DNA of 26,673 nt from a phage (GCA_014436445.1 GCA_014436445.1_4089.1), one strand, 5' to 3'. Positions 4,101-21,135 are shown, counted from the first letter of the stretch. Program-made: numbers and translations. Notes: generated by a model not told the origin, from the sequence alone.

Positions 4101-4321
4101 GATTTTATTCCTTATTGCCAGGGAGAACCGTTTCCCCCTCTCGATATAAAACATTATACTTGATTCTAAGTACAATGCAAGTACTTTTTATCAAATAGTT
4201 TTCAGTACTGAATACTTATATAATATATACATTTATGCACCCTGTGGGTCAGTGAGCTATCTCTCAATGAATATATAATAGCAAAGGGACTGACCGGAGT
4301 CAATCCCTTTTTTAATCTTTT

Positions 4322-7139: not shown

Positions 7140-7205
7140 TTTGTATTCCTCTTTGTGGTTTATGTAAGTATTATACTCGTTTAATTTCTATTGTCAAACT
7201 ATTTT

Positions 7206-7281
7206 ATCAGGGGAGGTTTTCGTATGTCTTACTCCTGGACTACTTAACGGGGAGTTACTTGTTTCGTTCCCCGTCCTGATG
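7206..7281 (-). ncRNA. candidate structured RNA or leader element, copy 1 (copy 2 at 17522-17597)
   Basis: A ~76-nt element bounded by the inverted termini ATCAGG...CCTGAT, with an internal CGGGGA...TCCCCG stem, transcribed from the TTGCAT/TATAAT promoter at about 7283-7320. It differs from the 17522-17597 copy at only 4 positions. Confidence 0.35.
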
Positions 7282-7462
7282 TAAAACATTATACTTGATT
7301 CTAAGTACAATGCAAGTACTTTTTAAAAATAGTTTTCAGTACTTGATAGTACTAGCCACCAGCATATAATAGATACATTTATGCACCCTGTGGGCTGATT
7401 TGTTTCTATGCGTATATAATAGCAAAGGGACTGACCGGAGTCAATCCCTTTTTTAAATCTTT

Positions 7463-7612
7463 TTAAACTTGTTTTGGGTTGCGATATGTGATAGCGTTCG
7501 GGTACATTTGTTTAATGTTATTCCATGCCTGGTTAACATTGTAACCACTTGATCGAATCAGTTGGTTACTACCGACACCTTGAAACACTACTTCAAATAA
7601 GAATTCTTTCAT
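7463..7612 (-). CDS. hypothetical small protein (49 aa)
   Basis: Not in the track. GAGGTG Shine-Dalgarno; followed by the terminator repeat at 7424-7453. Confidence 0.4.
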   Translation of the reverse strand: MKEFLFEVVFQGVGSNQLIRSSGYNVNQAWNNIKQMYPNAITYRNPKQV

Positions 7613-7782
7613 GCTTTCACCTCGCTATCTGCTTTGCCTTTACGCCAGGCCGTTGCTAATTGTTCGCGTTGCCATAAGTCGAGTGATACGTAAAGTTTTG
7701 CATTATCACCCTTCGGATATTCGCCAGTAGTGCCTAACCGATAAAACAGATCTTTCAGTACTGATAATTCTACTTGGATCAT
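7609..7782 (-). CDS. hypothetical small protein (57 aa)
   Basis: Not in the track. AGGAG Shine-Dalgarno; ATGA overlap with the downstream ORF. Confidence 0.4.
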   Translation of the reverse strand: MIQVELSVLKDLFYRLGTTGEYPKGDNAKLYVSLDLWQREQLATAWRKGKADSEVKA

Positions 7783-7871
7783 TGTATTACTCCTGATTGT
7801 GTTAGTACTTCTACGATGGCATGAATGATCATAAGTACAGCTAACACAACAATCATCGGATTCATTTGCAT
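7779..7871 (-). CDS. 30-aa hydrophobic peptide (MQMNPMIVVLAVLMIIHAIVEVLTQSGVIQ), predicted single-pass membrane peptide
   Basis: Not in the track. AAGGAG Shine-Dalgarno 8 nt before the ATG; about 20 consecutive hydrophobic residues; its stop overlaps the next start (ATGA). Confidence 0.4.
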   Translation of the reverse strand: MQMNPMIVVLAVLMIIHAIVEVLTQSGVIQ

Positions 7872-7888
7872 AAGCTGTACTCCTTCTA

Positions 7889-8101
7889 TTAATCTTTCAG
7901 CCAATGATCTTGAATGAATTTTTCACAGAATCCCTGTTTCATAGATTCTAACAGGCGTTCACGGTGAGCGGCGGCATATTGCTCAGTACTATGCGTTACG
8001 CCAGGTTGATAACGTGAAACACCGTCTGGTCCGATATATTGAACATCCCACGGTTTTTCGTTAGTATCAGACCATTTACGAACGATTAGTTGACCTTGCA
8101 T
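7889..8101 (-). CDS. hypothetical small protein (70 aa), first gene of a four-gene micro-operon
   Basis: Track ORF; AAGAGGAAAG Shine-Dalgarno; leader hairpin GGGGAGAATCATTTCTCCCC and promoter at 8110-8180. Confidence 0.6.
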   Translation of the reverse strand: MQGQLIVRKWSDTNEKPWDVQYIGPDGVSRYQPGVTHSTEQYAAAHRERLLESMKQGFCEKFIQDHWLKD

Positions 8102-8186
8102 GTTTCTTTCCTCTTAGTGGGGAGAATCATTTCTCCCCTTCATGTAAACTATTATACAGTACTACGATGCTTTGTCAAATACTTTT

Positions 8187-8874: not shown

Positions 8875-9132
8875 TTATCTCATAGATCTATGCCAACAAT
8901 TACGGGGATTGCGTTTGAATATGCTATCATGATCAGCCTGGCAAGTGATGCAGTACTTACACCCCTTAACGGCCAGGCGGCGATTCTCAGGGATTTTATC
9001 GCCGCAGTCGAGGCAATGTATCAGTGATTCTATTTGTGCGTTAATTTGCGTTCTAGCGTGGTTTACAGCGGCCTGAATCACTGCGTTAATCTCGTCTTGC
9101 TCGGCCCCGTCCTTCGCGAATCCAACAGCCAT
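8875..9132 (-). CDS. TraR/DksA-family C4 zinc-finger protein (85 aa)
   Basis: CLDCGDKIPENRRLAVKGCKYCITCQ matches the TraR/DksA C-x2-C-x17-C-x2-C zinc finger with the conserved IPE.RR core. GAGGT Shine-Dalgarno. Confidence 0.75.
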   Translation of the reverse strand: MAVGFAKDGAEQDEINAVIQAAVNHARTQINAQIESLIHCLDCGDKIPENRRLAVKGCKYCITCQADHDSIFKRNPRNCWHRSMR

Positions 9133-9295
9133 TATTTTAACCTCATTATAAAAATACTATAGTACTGTAATGCTACAATAATACTACTAGTACTGATTTT
9201 ATTCAAACCGTATGATACTACATATTCCCCAGCATTACCACGAATGGTAACGCCTTTGTACTTTCTATATAATTTCAACTACGTTTATTGCCTTT

Positions 9296-9366
9296 GATCA
9301 AGATTTGATCAGAATTATACGCCTTATGCTAAATTGATCCAGTACTTTTTTGATCATTTATTGATC
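9296..9366. repeat. cluster of five TTGATC(A) repeats (five GATC sites in 71 bp)
   Basis: GATC at 9296, 9307, 9336, 9352 and 9363, each within a TTGATC heptamer context; roughly 20-fold denser than expected at this base composition. Confidence 0.6.
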
Positions 9367-9461
9367 GATATTATATAGTTACATTTGTGCACCCTATGGG
9401 TTAGTGACGTTCTCGTCTTGATGTAAGTATTATGCTAGTACTGGCATAATTTGTCAATAGA

Positions 9462-9659
9462 TTATTTTAACTTTTTTCTGTCATTGATTAATGCTTTCAG
9501 TACTATACTAATGATTTGCAATGATTCATCAATGACTATAAAATTATTTTCTTTCATTAGATGATAGTTACCATTGATTGTATATTCTAAGGAGTACTGT
9601 TTACGTTTAATTTTTGATAATGTTTCTATTTGTTTTTGTACTGATTTCATGCTAATCAT
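9462..9659 (-). CDS. hypothetical small lysine-rich protein (65 aa), weakly supported
   Basis: Track ORF with no convincing Shine-Dalgarno or promoter; very AT-rich. Confidence 0.3.
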   Translation of the reverse strand: MISMKSVQKQIETLSKIKRKQYSLEYTINGNYHLMKENNFIVIDESLQIISIVLKALINDRKKLK

Positions 9660-9764
9660 TGTTAAACGTCCTGTAACGCATTCTAACGAGTTAAACGGTT
9701 TAGTACTGGCATTGTATAGGGTAAATGATTATAGCCCACCAGCGTTAACCAGTGGGCTATAATC

Positions 9765-10491: not shown

Positions 10492-10586
10492 TTTGTTTTC
10501 TCTCTCTGTTAGTGGGGAGAACTATTCTCCCCTTGATGTAAACTATTATACAGTACTAAAAACTATTGTCAAACTATTTTTTAATA

Positions 10587-10928
10587 TTATTCGAAATCTT
10601 CTGGACCGGACTGATAATCATCTTCACCGTATGCACTTTCTAACTTCTCGCCAGTATGATCATCAGTTAGTGAGTCATCCTCATAGTTCACGTCTACGCC
10701 CGTGATGTAAAACTGGCTATCGTCTGGATCATTGAAATTAATTTTCTGAATGTTTACAATAACTGTATTGATACCCAGGACACAGCCATCAGCCGTTACA
10801 AAGTACTGATATTTTTCACATCCACCACTATTGAAACCGTAATTGATTTCGGCCCGACCATCATTTAAACGCAGTGCCTGAGCGATGATTTCGTTTTCAA
10901 AGTTAGATTGAGCAATTGCAATAGTCAT
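10587..10928 (-). CDS. hypothetical protein with a strongly acidic C-terminal tail (113 aa)
   Basis: Track ORF; C-terminal ~40 residues are rich in D/E (YEDDSLTDDHTGEKLESAYGEDDYQSGPEDFE); leader hairpin and promoter at 10947-11010. Confidence 0.6.
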   Translation of the reverse strand: MTIAIAQSNFENEIIAQALRLNDGRAEINYGFNSGGCEKYQYFVTADGCVLGINTVIVNIQKINFNDPDDSQFYITGVDVNYEDDSLTDDHTGEKLESAYGEDDYQSGPEDFE

Positions 10929-11157
10929 GATTCGTTTCCTTATTACCAGGGGAAACCGTTTCCCCTTGCGATGTAAAACATTATACGCCTATTGAGATAG
11001 TATGCAAGTACTTTTTATCAAATACTTTAAAATAGTTTTCTGTACTCAATCATTATACAATAGATACACTCCTGCACCCTGTGGGCTAGTGAGCTATCTC
11101 TCAATGAATATATAATAGCAAAATGGCTGACCGAAGTCAACCACTTTTTCATTTATT

Positions 11158-11286
11158 TTTAGCTTTCAGAATCGCCGCCTTTCGCGTCATGCCTTGCTTG
11201 ATGTACTCCTTTACTTTCGCTTTACGTGCTTTCGCTTTATCTGCTTTCGTTTTAGGAGTACTGTAAATTAAACCGTTAGGATTCAT
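11158..11286 (-). CDS. hypothetical very basic small protein (42 aa; MNPNGLIYSTPKTKADKAKARKAKVKEYIKQGMTRKAAILKA)
   Basis: Not in the track. GGTGA Shine-Dalgarno; lysine- and arginine-rich; followed by the terminator repeat at 11120-11148. Confidence 0.35.
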
Positions 11287-11376
11287 TTAAATCACCATAA
11301 AGAATAGATAGGTTACTAACAATGCCGCGATCAATGCACCGACCAGGGCCGAACTGTAATAAGCTAATGATTTCAT
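11287..11376 (-). CDS. 29-aa hydrophobic peptide (MKSLAYYSSALVGALIAALLVTYLFFMVI), predicted membrane peptide
   Basis: Not in the track. ATGA overlap with the upstream gene; continuous hydrophobic stretch; stop abuts the next ATG. Confidence 0.4.
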   Translation of the reverse strand: MKSLAYYSSALVGALIAALLVTYLFFMVI

Positions 11377-11525
11377 TTTTTAGCCTGAAAGTAATGTTTA
11401 ATTTGTGCGGCGGTCAGTGCACAATTACGCAGGAAGTTTTCTGTATAACTCCTACGAGTACTGAAAGAAAATTGACCTTTGCCGTTGCCGATAGTAACAT
11501 CAAACCGAGCGTTGTATTGTTTCAT
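11373..11525 (-). CDS. hypothetical small protein (50 aa)
   Basis: Track ORF 11373..11555 trimmed to the ATG at 11525 (AGGAG Shine-Dalgarno) downstream of the leader hairpin at 11543-11565. Confidence 0.5.
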   Translation of the reverse strand: MKQYNARFDVTIGNGKGQFSFSTRRSYTENFLRNCALTAAQIKHYFQAKK

Positions 11526-11608
11526 TTTGATTCTCCTAGTATCGGGGAGAACCATTCCCCCCCCCTCTATGTAAACAATTATACAGTACTGAAAACTAAT
11601 TGCAAGTA

Positions 11609-11851
11609 TTATTTTAAACTTTGTGCGACTAATTTCGCACGGTCAATCATATACTGCCATTTTTGGATCTCTTCTGGCAGAAAACGATATTCACCAATCA
11701 CAATAGTGATACACTTTTCAGCCTGGTCAATGTATGTAGTATCAATCTCAACCTGAACGGGTACACGTTCGCCGTATTCAGTACCAGGGACAATGCAATC
11801 ATTATCATAAGTAACCGTAAGTGCGGTATCTTTAATTAAAATAGTTTCCAT
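11609..11851 (-). CDS. hypothetical protein (80 aa)
   Basis: Track ORF 11609..11902 trimmed to the ATG at 11851 (GAGGAAAG Shine-Dalgarno); leader hairpin GCGGGAACTATTCCCGC at 11870-11888. Confidence 0.55.
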   Translation of the reverse strand: METILIKDTALTVTYDNDCIVPGTEYGERVPVQVEIDTTYIDQAEKCITIVIGEYRFLPEEIQKWQYMIDRAKLVAQSLK

Positions 11852-14103: not shown

Positions 14104-14330
14104 CTTTATATCCTCAGTTAGTTAAGGTGTTTCGCCTTGATGTAAAACATTATACGCTAATCTCTGAATCGTGCAAGTACTTTTTATTACTTTTTGCAAA
14201 ATACTTTAAACGCTCTAAATCGCATTCTAACGACCTTAACTCCACCAGCTAGGGCGATGCATCAGATAATCAGTTTAATGCGTTAGAATCGATTCTATGA
14301 GGTGCTGACGGCATGGAATACTATAGACAC

Positions 14331-14355
14331 AAAAAAGCCCACTGTATAAGTGGGC
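14331..14355 (-). terminator. intrinsic terminator
   Basis: GCCCACTTATACAGTGGGC stem followed by TTTTTT on the minus strand, directly after the stop of 14378..14860. Confidence 0.6.
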
Positions 14356-14377
14356 TAGTGATTCAGTACTTTAATTG

Positions 14378-14860
14378 TTATGCTTCAACTTTGCGGTGAG
14401 CTTCGATCCATTCCTCGCGAGTCATACCGCTTTCTTTGATTGCATCCAGTACTACCGCAATGCAGTTACCGCGTACAGGAATCAAATGTTCTTCCCCGTT
14501 ATCAAGGACAACCGTAACACGTTCTTGAATCCATTTTTTAGGCTTAGATTCCGGCTTATCTTCACCGTACTTAACCGCCAGGGCTTTATGTGCCATTTCA
14601 ATCACCACTTCCAGATCTAAACCAGACACCGCCGCCTGAATACTTTCTATTGTTGCTTGCAGTTCTGCTTCACGGGCTTTTTTCTGTTCTTCCAGTTCTG
14701 CTACCTTTTTGGCTTGTAGTTCTTTCGCTTCACTGTAAGCAATGTTAAAATTGTTGCGTACTGCTTTCATGGTATCATTATCCAGGTCAGCCAGCAATTC
14801 AGCAGCAATAACAGTATCGTTAGAAATCAGTGCTTTCAGAAATGATTTTACATTAGCCAT
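14378..14860 (-). CDS. hypothetical protein with a central coiled-coil-like segment (160 aa)
   Basis: Track ORF trimmed to the ATG at 14860 (GAGGA Shine-Dalgarno); the central KELQAKKVAELEEQKKAREAELQATIESIQ segment is heptad-like; promoter TTGACA, 16 nt, TAGAAT at about 14965-15000. Confidence 0.6.
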   Translation of the reverse strand: MANVKSFLKALISNDTVIAAELLADLDNDTMKAVRNNFNIAYSEAKELQAKKVAELEEQKKAREAELQATIESIQAAVSGLDLEVVIEMAHKALAVKYGEDKPESKPKKWIQERVTVVLDNGEEHLIPVRGNCIAVVLDAIKESGMTREEWIEAHRKVEA

Positions 14861-15551: not shown

Positions 15552-15650
15552 ATAAAGACGAGATAGTCACTAACCCACAGGGTGCATAGATCCGTCTATT
15601 AAATGATTCAGTACAAAAAATATAAAGGGGATCAATTGATCCCCCTGGTT
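15552..15650 (+). ncRNA. candidate ~100-nt small RNA
   Basis: Predicted transcript from the 15517-15545 promoter, containing GAGATAGTCACTAACCCACAGGGTGCA and ending at the palindromic hairpin GGGGATCAATTGATCCCCC (15627-15645), which also terminates minus gene 15652..15873. Confidence 0.3.
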
Positions 15651-17453: not shown

Positions 17454-17521
17454 TTTGTAACCCTCATTCAGTGGTTGATGTAAGTATTATACTTGTTTAC
17501 TTTCTATTGTCAAACTATTTT

Positions 17522-17597
17522 ATCAGGGGAGTTTTTCGTAAGTCTTACTCCTGGACTACTTAACAGGGAGTTACTTATTTCGTTCCCCGTCCTGATG
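17522..17597 (-). ncRNA. candidate structured RNA or leader element, copy 2
   Basis: Differs from the 7206-7281 copy at only 4 positions; same flanking promoters. Confidence 0.35.
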
Positions 17598-17752
17598 TAA
17601 AACATTATACGCCTTTAAACATAGTTGGCAAGTACTTTTTGAAAATAGTTTTTAGTACTTTCATATAGATACACTCCCGCACCCTATGGGCTATCGCCTA
17701 GTGTCCGGCTTGTAAGTATTATCTCACTAAGCCGGATAACTGTCAAGTACTT

Positions 17753-19360: not shown

Positions 19361-19457
19361 ATTTTCATCAAGTCGAGAAAGACTCTAGCCCACCGGGTGC
19401 ATAATTGTATCTAAAATTCAGTACTAGATTATTTTTTAAAATTATTCATCCAGGCGG

Positions 19458-20398: not shown

Positions 20399-20628
20399 CG
20401 TGATTACTTTTGATTACATTTGATGTAATTTGCAAAATGGAAAAGGAGCTTGGAAACTACAAAGTACGGCAGACTTCCTCTGCCTACTTAGTGGCATATC
20501 AGTACTGCTACGTTCTTGATTAAACGTGAACATTCCTGTACTCTAGTACTCAATACTAATCACTACCGTGCGTATGAATGATTACATAAATGTTTATATA
20601 TGATTACTTATGACTACCTATGATTACG
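20399..20628. repeat. two clusters of helically phased (A)TGATTAC repeats (20399-20428 and 20578-20628)
   Basis: GATTAC at 20401 and 20411 plus GATGTAAT at 20421; ATGATTAC at 20578, 20601 and 20621 plus ATGACTAC at 20611, with 10-bp spacing in the second cluster. Confidence 0.5.
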
Positions 20629-20743
20629 GGGTTTAGCCTGGGGAGAATCCTAGTGATCGCATTTGTCCAGGCTGAATTTTAACATATGCAACATATGTTA
20701 AAGCCTGTATAATGCTTCCACTACGGAGCTTCCCCTAGCTATA

Positions 20744-20944
20744 TTACTTCCTATATATAATCATTAAGATATAGTAGTACTGATTGTACTGTACATTCTC
20801 TTTAATATTATAAGGGTCTATAGCAATCTCGGTACATCTGTTAAATGCATATCTATTAAATGCCAGTGGAATTATAGATCTAATCCATACTTGTTCATTT
20901 TCTTTTAGTTTACTTATATAGAATTCTTTATGTTCTTTATTCAT
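20744..20944 (-). CDS. small-protein paralog array, member 15 (66 aa)
   Basis: Track ORF; N-terminus MNKEHKEFY, central Cys motif (NRCTEIAI), C-terminus YYILMIIYRK. Confidence 0.6.
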   Translation of the reverse strand: MNKEHKEFYISKLKENEQVWIRSIIPLAFNRYAFNRCTEIAIDPYNIKENVQYNQYYYILMIIYRK

Positions 20945-20949
20945 ATTAG

Positions 20950-21135
20950 TTAGTGTCTGTATATAAGTAATAGTAAGAATACGTACTGCACATCTTCATC
21001 TTTAGTATTGAGTACTGTACGTATTGCGTCATTAAACAAGAATATAGTACTTGGGTCATGAGAATTTAAAGGGGTTCTGGGTACGGCATGTTTGTAGTTC
21101 CCTTTAACAAATTGTGTGTAGTATTCTCTATGCAT
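20950..21135 (-). CDS. small-protein paralog array, member 14 (61 aa)
   Basis: Track ORF; MHREYYTQF...LLLLIYRH. Confidence 0.6.
   Translation of the reverse strand: MHREYYTQFVKGNYKHAVPRTPLNSHDPSTIFLFNDAIRTVLNTKDEDVQYVFLLLLIYRH

Follow-up and report, generated by a model that had tools for sequence, protein, structure and literature searches.

Organization of the locus

Three short genes lie one behind the other on the minus strand of a 26,673-nt stretch of DNA, referred to as the window, whose source is an Asteriusvirus (121Q/PBECO4-like) jumbo coliphage. They encode a 50-residue protein (A50), a 29-residue hydrophobic peptide (B29) and a 45-residue basic protein (C45). A promoter, a leader hairpin and an SD sequence precede the genes, and an intrinsic terminator and a repeated non-coding module follow them. 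The coordinates of all these features are given in Table 1, along with those of a second unit with which the locus is compared below.

Table 1. Features of the locus and of the comparison unit, numbered from the first letter of the window.
Feature	Position	Strand	Remarks
σ70-type promoter, TTGCAA-16 nt-TATAAT	11578..11605	-	10/12 consensus positions; conserved in 15 relatives
5' leader hairpin, G-run ... AATGG ... TTCTCCCC	11544..11565	-	read from sequence
SD AGGAG of gene 1	11537..11533	-	after leader hairpin, 7 nt 5' of gene 1
Gene 1, A50, 50 aa (121Q gp286)	11373..11525	-	MKQYNARF...QAKK; phrog_7119; pI 10.2
Gene 2, B29, 29 aa	11287..11376	-	MKSLAYYSSALVGALIAALLVTYLFFMVI; GRAVY 1.78; ATG overlaps gene 1 TGA (ATGA)
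Gene 3, C45, 45 aa (121Q gp287)	11149..11286	-	MNPNGLIYSTPKTKADKAKARKAKVKEYIKQGMTRKAAILKAKNK; phrog_29913; ATG abuts gene 2 TAA (TAAATG)
Intrinsic terminator hairpin AAAGTGGTTGACTTCGGTCAGCCATTTT	11120..11147	-	promoter/terminator scan
Repeated non-coding module 3' of operon	11027..11112	-	core AGCCCACAGGGTGCA at 11087..11073
Comparison unit	7463..8178	-	promoter 8178..8151 and four genes
70-aa gene	8101..7889	-	comparison unit, gene 1
30-aa hydrophobic ORF (121Q gp298 / G17_00022)	7871..7779	-	comparison unit; own AGGAG SD
57-aa gene	7782..7609	-	comparison unit; ATGA-joined to preceding ORF
49-aa gene	7612..7463	-	comparison unit; ATGA-joined to preceding gene
Terminator of comparison unit	7451..7424	-	homologous to hairpin 11147..11120

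The cistrons are joined by ATGA (genes 1 and 2) and by TAAATG (genes 2 and 3). Gene 2 has a weak SD (AGG, 7 nt before the start), so that translation of B29 would depend on coupling. The SD of gene 3 is GGTGAT, which corresponds to the 3' portion of the SD consensus. It lies within the last codons of gene 2 (ATG GTG ATT TAA), 4 nt before the start of C45. When the minus strand was examined from 11605 to 11120, no internal promoter-like or terminator-like site was detected between the two ends. Judged from the sequence, the three ORFs are one operon, a predicted tricistronic early transcription unit, and not chance ORFs.

A sequence-only reading of this DNA had placed a small gene, a hydrophobic mini-ORF and a basic ORF at 11158–11525. 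The 50-aa gene at 11373..11525 and the overlapping 29-aa ORF at 11376..11287 were both confirmed, on the minus strand and with the ATGA junction, the former having AGGAG 7 nt upstream. The third ORF is lysine-rich as claimed, but it encodes 45 residues and not 42. The left boundary had to be moved, as C45 ends at 11149 and position 11158 falls 9 nt inside it. The same reading held that these were not chance ORFs, and named conservation of the frames in related genomes as the check. This view was borne out: the B29 frame was conserved in every relative examined, and positional relatives were found in two other jumbo-phage lineages.

An A-rich stretch (AAAATAATAC) lies 5' of the operon promoter, which is one of the near-identical modules described in the next section. 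The leader hairpin is of the GGGGAGAAnnGTTCTCCCC type, as behind most early promoters in the window, and the length of its G-run differs among genomes. It may be noted that a 60-aa version of A50, starting from 11555, is conceivable. The ATG of this version falls within the leader hairpin, and only some annotations have it.

At the other end of the operon, the terminator stem includes TTGACT, and TATTAT is found 17 nt further on. The annotation of G17 by its authors also places a terminator at the homologous site. The repeat module downstream occurs eight times in the window, where 0.03 copies would be expected, and no other part of the locus is as well conserved. An Rfam search with this module gave no match. 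The module is outside the coding design of the operon. A 41-aa ORF at 11152..11027 was considered as a further gene and was rejected: it overlaps the stop of gene 3, it sits on the terminator and the repeat module, and its frame is broken in other genomes by a 1-nt difference in an A-run.

The early gene block and its relatives

According to GC skew and the gene list, coding is on the minus strand from position 1 of the window to about 20.5 kb. On this strand the early region has 27 nearly identical promoter modules of the σ70 consensus, with a spacer of 16 nt, and most of the early promoters lead, through the conserved leader hairpin, to an SD. About 30 transcription units were counted in the window. 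No tRNA was found there, and Rfam gave no relevant matches.

When 901 bases around the locus were used as a query, 36 phage records were matched at 88–97% identity, all of them from jumbo myoviruses of the genus Asteriusvirus with E. coli or Salmonella as host (PBECO4, 121Q, G17 and phAPEC6 among them). The tricistronic unit was present in 36/36 of these records, each listed match spanning positions 186–901 of the query, i.e., 11615..10900 of the window. The entire window is a mosaic within Asteriusvirus.

The place of the locus in the genome was taken from relatives with physically mapped genome ends. In fEgEco12, the homologous stretch is found at 9,018–9,727, within a terminal repeat of 20,993 bp (PMC13070987). 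In G17, BF17 and ELP-22, it lies about 10 kb from the left end, in a direct terminal repeat of about 21 kb. For the Rak2-like phage CBB, clusters of RpoD-like promoters on short hypothetical ORFs have been interpreted as an early host-takeover region (PMC5259590).

The products of genes 1 and 3

A50 matched the phrog_7119 profile over its full length (residues 1–50, E = 7.3e-28). Homologues were found in Alcyoneusvirus (Klebsiella jumbo phages, 54% identity), in Vequintavirinae/rV5-like phages, in Certrevirus, and in uncultured phages and metagenomes. The AF2 model of A50 (pLDDT 91) has four short strands and two C-terminal helices, and the predicted fold is a small beta-barrel followed by these helices. 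A homeodomain-like helix-turn-helix was also considered for A50. The helix 2–3 motif, LT..QI..YF, gave about 9.5 bits per matched stretch, and whole-sequence E-values ranged from 0.002 (for a tandem engrailed fusion, with two stretches) to >1. The three-helix homeodomain fold was rejected, since four strands and two short helices are present in the AF2 model.

C45 likewise matched its profile, phrog_29913, over its full length (residues 1–45, E = 3.2e-32). Its homologues were found only in Asteriusvirus, and among the relatives there are two N-terminal alleles. The protein has 14 K+R against 2 D+E, a net charge of +12 and a pI of 10.6. In the AF2 model, the N-terminus is disordered and two helices, 14–30 and 35–44, form a helical hairpin. 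Foldseek gave no match below E = 2 for this model, and the searches with C45 gave neither a structural nor a sequence relative with a function.

Evidence for a coding function of the 29-residue ORF

B29 has a lysine at position 2, near its N-terminus, and a run of 20 consecutive hydrophobic or small residues (A10–I29) that extends up to the C-terminus. Its maximum 17-residue hydropathy is 2.54. B29 is predicted to be a single-pass inner-membrane microprotein.

In 15/15 independent Asteriusvirus sequences, the B29 frame was intact over 29 codons, with no stop or frameshift. In the record of CMSTMSU, which is a low-quality, error-rich entry labelled "UNVERIFIED", the ORF has an in-frame deletion of two codons. 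The Asteriusvirus genomes have diverged by 3–12% at the locus, and the substitution counts for B29 are small (15 changes). Read in its own frame, B29 has 8 synonymous vs. 6 non-synonymous variant codons; for the two alternative frames, the figures are 1/12 and 4/9. All the six replacements (K2R, S3T, L11V, V12I, G13V and T22A) are conservative. Of the 15 base changes, nine affect the third codon position (p = 0.03). Genes 1 and 3, for which the counts are larger, agree with this (16/23 and 30/48, respectively), and in A50 14 variant codons are synonymous vs. 6 non-synonymous.

Open windows of 28 codons having a mean hydropathy ≥1.5 make up 0.18% of all such windows on the A-rich coding strand of the 20-kb early region. 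They cluster at two mini-ORFs, together with a few out-of-frame stretches within genes. When B29's own bases were shuffled, 0.5% of the shuffles were open and equally hydrophobic. In the scan of the window, B29 and the ORF at 7871..7779 were the only hydrophobic mini-ORFs to occupy otherwise free gaps on the coding strand. When the scan covered the window together with about 10 kb from three further genomes, the free slots yielded a single additional candidate, which is unconserved.

The RNA fold of B29 was not unusual (z = −0.42), and Rfam gave no match over the B29 region at E ≤ 1. For the 86-nt gap at B29, these Rfam and fold tests gave no support for an RNA element. The presence of B29 in the databases was checked by exact-cluster look-up. 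It has been deposited as a "hypothetical protein" of SD-1_S14, fEgEco12, ELP-22 and WPEC5, a variant being present in phAPEC6, and is absent from the annotations of 121Q, PBECO4, G17, Turkey3 and others. The frame conservation and the substitution pattern indicate that B29 is very probably a real, selected gene.

Hydrophobic ORFs behind phrog_7119 genes in other lineages

Intermediates between the phage lineages were found by way of proteins homologous to gene 1 and of the contigs that encode them. Scans of IMG/VR and of metagenomes with the gene 1 profile gave 8 further loci each, mostly from known lineages.

On the metagenomic contigs L039 and L040, the gene 1 homologue (72% identity) is followed by a 33-aa hydrophobic ORF (…AVLAVFLFFTLI), and this in turn by a homologue of the downstream gene of K64-1. 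The C-terminal ends of this ORF and of B29 are alike (...LFFTLI and ...LFFMVI, respectively). In K64-1, the gene 1 homologue is gp441, and an annotated 38-aa hydrophobic ORF, gp442, comes next; it overlaps the genes on both sides, at the preceding stop and at the following start. The 38-codon mini-ORF was intact in 8/8 Klebsiella-phage sequences. It starts with ATG or TTG, and the preceding stop is always overlapped. The changes within it number 12/3/12 at codon positions 1/2/3, which in sequence terms is the pattern expected if hydrophobicity is preserved. KP13-7 retains the mini-ORF and an ATGA-type overlap without gene 1, a different gene of 333 aa being the preceding one.

Like B29, gp442 (38 aa) and the L039/L040 peptide (33 aa) lie directly behind a phrog_7119 gene, with a start that overlaps the preceding stop or is next to it, and have a basic N-terminus and a hydrophobic helix. 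Unlike B29, gp442 is followed by a gene for a 101-aa protein instead of a 45-aa basic one, and it differs in length. The peptides were compared by composition-preserving shuffles; similarity between TM peptides is hard to tell from convergence, such composition-controlled shuffles notwithstanding. B29 was similar to the L039 peptide (p = 0.0008), and the latter was similar to the peptide of Klebsiella phage Muenster (p = 0.0004) and to K64-1 gp442 (p = 0.013). The direct comparison of B29 with gp442 was not significant (p = 0.66). We read these peptides as a putative, loosely conserved family of membrane microproteins behind phrog_7119 genes, linked via the L039 intermediate, in which convergence of TM segments is possible.

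The pairing of gene 1 with a mini-ORF is not universal. rV5, CR9 and CB7 (rV5-like/Certrevirus) and several uncultured lineages differ in this respect: in rV5-like phages, Certrevirus and several metagenomic lineages, a promoter or a 59-aa gene was found after the gene 1 homologue.

Comparison with the 7463–8101 unit

The layout of the locus had been described in the sequence-only reading as a mirror of an operon at 7463–8101. A hydrophobic mini-ORF (121Q gp298) is indeed the second cistron there, but the unit has four genes (70, 30, 57 and 49 aa) and no strongly basic protein, the distal proteins having pI values of 8.0 and 9.7 and not being K/R-rich. Between gp298 and B29, there was no similarity beyond composition (p = 0.34), and the flanking proteins of the two units belong to different PHROGs. 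Gp298 is also facultative, as 20 of the approximately 37 records that carry the unit contain its DNA. In ph0011, EC22.5-2 and CMSTMSU, the gp298 slot, i.e., the gap between the 70-aa and 57-aa genes, contains a promoter-plus-leader module. Two alleles of gp298 differ by 5 synonymous and 2 conservative changes, and this mini-ORF is probably coding too.

Gp298 is like B29 in being in the same genome region, in its place as second cistron, in its similar length and hydrophobicity, and in its coding-like substitutions. It is unlike B29 in that it has a strong AGGAG SD instead of an ATGA overlap, no basic residue, a polar C-terminal tail, and a facultative occurrence. With unrelated peptides, different PHROGs and a facultative gp298, there is little to favour the further claim that the two units represent a recurring functional arrangement. 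Their resemblance appears to be that of a common cassette frame in which independent, unrelated membrane mini-genes are placed. This frame consists of promoter, leader hairpin, terminator and downstream repeat, and is used by much of the early region. A hydrophobic mini-ORF is second in 2 of the approximately 30 cassettes of the window.

As a matter of speculation, a mini-gene may have arisen by overprinting of a promoter module in such a slot. The Klebsiella mini-ORF contains a promoter-like TTGACA-17-TATCAT, whereas B29 has none. An nhmmer profile of the 27 window promoters gave a weak match to the Klebsiella mini-ORF (E about 0.07–0.09). The same profile did not match B29.

Searches for function

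Searches of Pfam, PHROG, NCBIfam and PADLOC assigned none of the three proteins to a functional family. Matches to SAM_SMF (20 bits), aureocin A53 (16.5 bits) and KPN_01571 (17.4 bits) were weak and below the curated cut-offs, and were rejected. When six small proteins were tested against the defence, anti-defence and superinfection-exclusion models of PADLOC-DB, none was matched. For B29, the only model matches at E ≤ 1 were two weak, unannotated PHROGs. B29 does have the architecture of a small inner-membrane regulator, namely one TM helix, a length of <50 aa and no signal peptidase site.

Discussion

We consider it likely that the locus is one tricistronic early unit with a conserved host-takeover membrane microprotein as its middle product, and that its resemblance to the gp298 unit is not that of a common three-part machine. 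In the sequence of events that we propose, the host RNA polymerase would transcribe the unit right after entry of the DNA, and ribosomes ending gene 1 would re-initiate first on gene 2 and next on gene 3. As a single helix, B29 would insert into the inner membrane of E. coli, its N-terminus inside and its C-terminus outside, because of the positive-inside rule (K2 in B29; KK or K in its relatives). By analogy with ΦNM1 Gp11 and with bacterial small membrane regulators, it may then bind or perturb a host membrane component, as a part of host takeover or of the exclusion of competitors. A50, the predicted small beta-barrel, and C45, the predicted helical hairpin with a charge of +12, would act in the cytoplasm as soluble basic partners. 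Our guess is that these two probably bind nucleic acid or a membrane surface.

In both units the second cistron is a hydrophobic mini-ORF with a length of about 30 aa; this, along with the same promoter–leader start, homologous terminators and the same downstream repeat, would agree with a recurring module of small protein, hydrophobic peptide and basic protein that works in the same way in both operons. Such a module is unlikely, since the two peptides are dissimilar and differ in topology (K2 and a hydrophobic C-terminus in B29, a polar tail in gp298), while the flanking proteins have no PHROG in common and the other unit has a fourth gene and no K/R-rich distal product. Moreover, about half of the genomes keep the genes on either side of gp298 but have a promoter module in its place, and the shared frame bounds many other units (the promoter 27 times, the repeat 8 times, the leader after most early promoters). 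We find it similarly improbable that the B29 ORF is a mere translational relay from gene 1 to gene 3, which unmasks the SD of gene 3 and yields a functionless peptide. The ATGA and TAAATG junctions, the weak SD of gene 2 and the location of GGTGAT inside the last codons of gene 2 all suit a relay. A relay, however, has no need of hydrophobicity, and yet hydrophobicity is preserved across three strongly diverged lineages, with codon position 2 nearly invariant. All the amino-acid changes in B29 are conservative, and the gene that follows the mini-ORF in L039 and K64-1 is not gene 3 and has an SD of its own.

Known type I toxins such as Ibs, ShoB and TisB are of a size like that of B29. A small and very hydrophobic peptide might damage the membrane in the manner of a type I toxin, holin or pinholin, with depolarization serving lysis timing, abortive processes or host shut-off. 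We regard this as very improbable for B29, which gave no Pfam or NCBIfam match at E ≤ 1 to type I toxin families (Hok/Gef, Ldr, TisB, Ibs, ShoB, Fst) and, apart from the two unannotated PHROGs, no match at this threshold to any toxin or holin model of Pfam, PHROG, NCBIfam or PADLOC. Its layout is not that of a type I toxin gene either, as it is an internal, coupled cistron with an ATGA overlap and without its own promoter. There is no convincing antisense promoter: the only plus-strand match near B29 has 9/12 positions, which is at background frequency, and such matches number 38, as against 22 expected in shuffles. Nor does B29 look like a holin or pinholin: it ends hydrophobic (…LFFMVI), without a charged C-terminal tail, it lies behind an early σ70-type promoter, no holin PHROG was matched, and its neighbours are small hypothetical proteins, with no endolysin or spanin near it. 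Still less probable is a −1 slip on the A6 before the gene 1 stop (GCT AAA AAA TGA), by which a tail-anchored phrog_7119 fusion of 79–80 aa would be made. It is true that the AAAAAATGA junction is invariant in 15 aligned Asteriusvirus sequences (CMSTMSU has an indel at the junction), and that the mini-ORF is in the −1 frame with respect to gene 1 in Asteriusvirus and Alcyoneusvirus. In L039 and L040, however, the mini-ORF begins after the stop, in the +1 frame, and the K64-1 junction is without an A-run (AAG AAA TAA TG). No stimulatory structure is evident from the fold of B29 given above, and ATGA overlaps are the usual mark of translational coupling in phage operons. A broader reading would make the phrog_7119 protein and the mini-protein a conserved two-component early effector of at least three jumbo-phage lineages (Asteriusvirus, Alcyoneusvirus and an uncultured one), with the microprotein recruiting or anchoring the beta-barrel at the inner membrane, possibly also as a −1-slip fusion; this we think unlikely.

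Under the preferred reading, with B29 as a host-takeover membrane microprotein of an early unit, the locus is of an ordinary phage gene kind and represents no new type of system; its ORFs were already deposited as "hypothetical protein". Its interest is that a 29-codon ORF skipped in many annotations, among them those of 121Q, PBECO4, G17 and Turkey3, is very probably a real, selected gene, and that three mini-genes of different genera are linked by position and by weak sequence similarity. Early membrane microproteins of this kind are plausible host-takeover or exclusion factors. What had appeared as a recurring design comes down mostly to the modular frame of promoters and terminators by which much of the gene block is delimited.

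Comparison with known systems

Bacterial small inner-membrane regulators include KdpF (29 aa), PmrR (29 aa), MgtS (31 aa) and AcrZ (49 aa). Like these, B29 has one helix, few charged residues and no signal peptide, and its predicted co-translation with neighbouring genes of an operon is similar to that of KdpF. Unlike them, it has as neighbours small soluble basic proteins and no large membrane complex, and no Pfam or NCBIfam match connects it with them.

As for the gene block, the first-step-transfer region of T5 comprises pre-early/early takeover genes in a long terminal repeat. The T5 block and the present gene block are alike in having many tiny genes behind strong host-type promoters and, as seen in relatives with mapped ends, a location in the terminal repeat that enters first. 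No homology to the pre-early genes of T5 was seen, and Asteriusvirus is not known to have two-step DNA transfer. A recent preprint also describes pre-early/early host-takeover blocks in long terminal repeats (bioRxiv 10.64898/2026.04.02.716235).

One example of the small single-pass membrane proteins made early by phages is Gp11 of the S. aureus phage ΦNM1, which acts on membrane machinery of the host via MurG and DivIC (PMC11237401). Gp11 has no sequence relation to B29; it has these known targets and a growth-arrest phenotype, and B29 differs in host (E. coli), phage type (jumbo myovirus) and size (29 aa). What the two have in common is that both are very small, early membrane proteins from a block of hypothetical early genes and that binding to host membrane machinery is their expected mode of action (PMC11237401), B29 being so by prediction.

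Repeated non-coding module

A repeated non-coding module with an invariant core was found. The core occurred eight times in the window against an expectation of 0.03, and a σ70-type -10 box lay about 25 nt upstream of every copy of the module (n = 8). For four copies, a -35 box (TTGACT) was located within the stem of the preceding terminator. The module could be folded into three small hairpins, with 82% pairing, which exceeded that of slid controls. Covariation was weak with eight copies, being equalled by 25 of 500 shuffles, and no match to the module was obtained in Rfam. When genomes were compared, no other part of the locus was as strongly conserved as the module, which is a candidate for a family of small RNAs or for a site of protein binding.

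A 41-aa ORF runs across the terminator and the module downstream of the 45-aa gene 3, and in some records a 33-aa ORF is annotated at the same locus (ELP22_0035 in relative ELP-22, WPEC5_CDS0036 in WPEC5). The 41-aa ORF is probably not a gene; in other genomes its A-run differs by 1 nt, shifting the frame.

Features discussed in this section, with their positions
Feature	Position	Strand	Remarks
Repeated non-coding module	11027-11147	-	Invariant core (A/G)CCCA(C/T)(A/C)GGGTGC
Core copies	1982-1996, 4236-4250, 7382-7396, 9388-9402, 11073-11087, 17678-17692	-	
Core copies	15572-15586, 19387-19401	+	
41-aa ORF	11027-11152	-	ATGA overlap with gene 3 stop
Early promoter module	e.g. 11544-11605, 8110-8178, 10510-10572	-	About 27 sites; near-identical copies
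Promoter-proximal non-coding stretch	17510-17631, 7194-7315	-	Two copies
Slot between 70-aa and 57-aa genes	7779-7888	-	Compared with L036:5300-5390, L037:5299-5384
K64-1 gp442, hydrophobic mini-ORF	L010 (K64-1):1350-1466		Homologues in L011, L016, L031-L034
Trp_leader family match	14329-14393	-	Rfam, sub-threshold
Coding strand switch	20500-21000		

Early promoter module and leaders

The early promoter module has the layout AAAAAGTAC TTGACA/TTGCAA, 16 nt (often with AGTACTG inside), TATAAT, nnTTTACAT. Behind most copies stands a conserved 5' leader hairpin, GGGGAGAAnnGTTCTCCCC, followed by an SD; the length of the hairpin's G-run differs from genome to genome. This hairpin could stabilise the 5' end or be a site of regulation.

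The longer promoter-proximal stretch reads TATAATGTTTTACATCAGGACGGGGAACGAAA(T/C)AAGTAACTCCC(T/C)GTTAAGTAGTCCAGGAGTAAGAC..., and a second promoter lies about 118 nt downstream of both copies. The ORFs called on them were short only (31-38 aa) and overlapped the next promoter. One possibility for the two stretches is a structured leader, another a small RNA.

Other features of the window

The Trp_leader match reached 29 bits (E = 0.035), where the gathering score is 41, and is probably due to chance. The early block on the minus strand stops near 20.5 kb, and the sign of the GC skew flips at about 21 kb. The coding strand switch may mark the inner boundary of a terminal-repeat early region.

Exchange of mini-genes and promoters

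The slot in the 7463-8101 unit is filled in one of two ways, by a membrane mini-gene of 30 aa or by a module of promoter plus leader, while the genes on both sides remain homologous. The slot illustrates cleanly the swapping of cassettes within an operon.

A promoter-like sequence (AAAAGTATTGACA, 17 nt, TATCAT/TATTAT) was also found inside the mini-ORF of the Klebsiella jumbo phages, the reading frame being open through it. Since this inner sequence resembles the early promoter module (a weak profile match, E of about 0.07), the Klebsiella-phage mini-ORF may be coding sequence and promoter at once.
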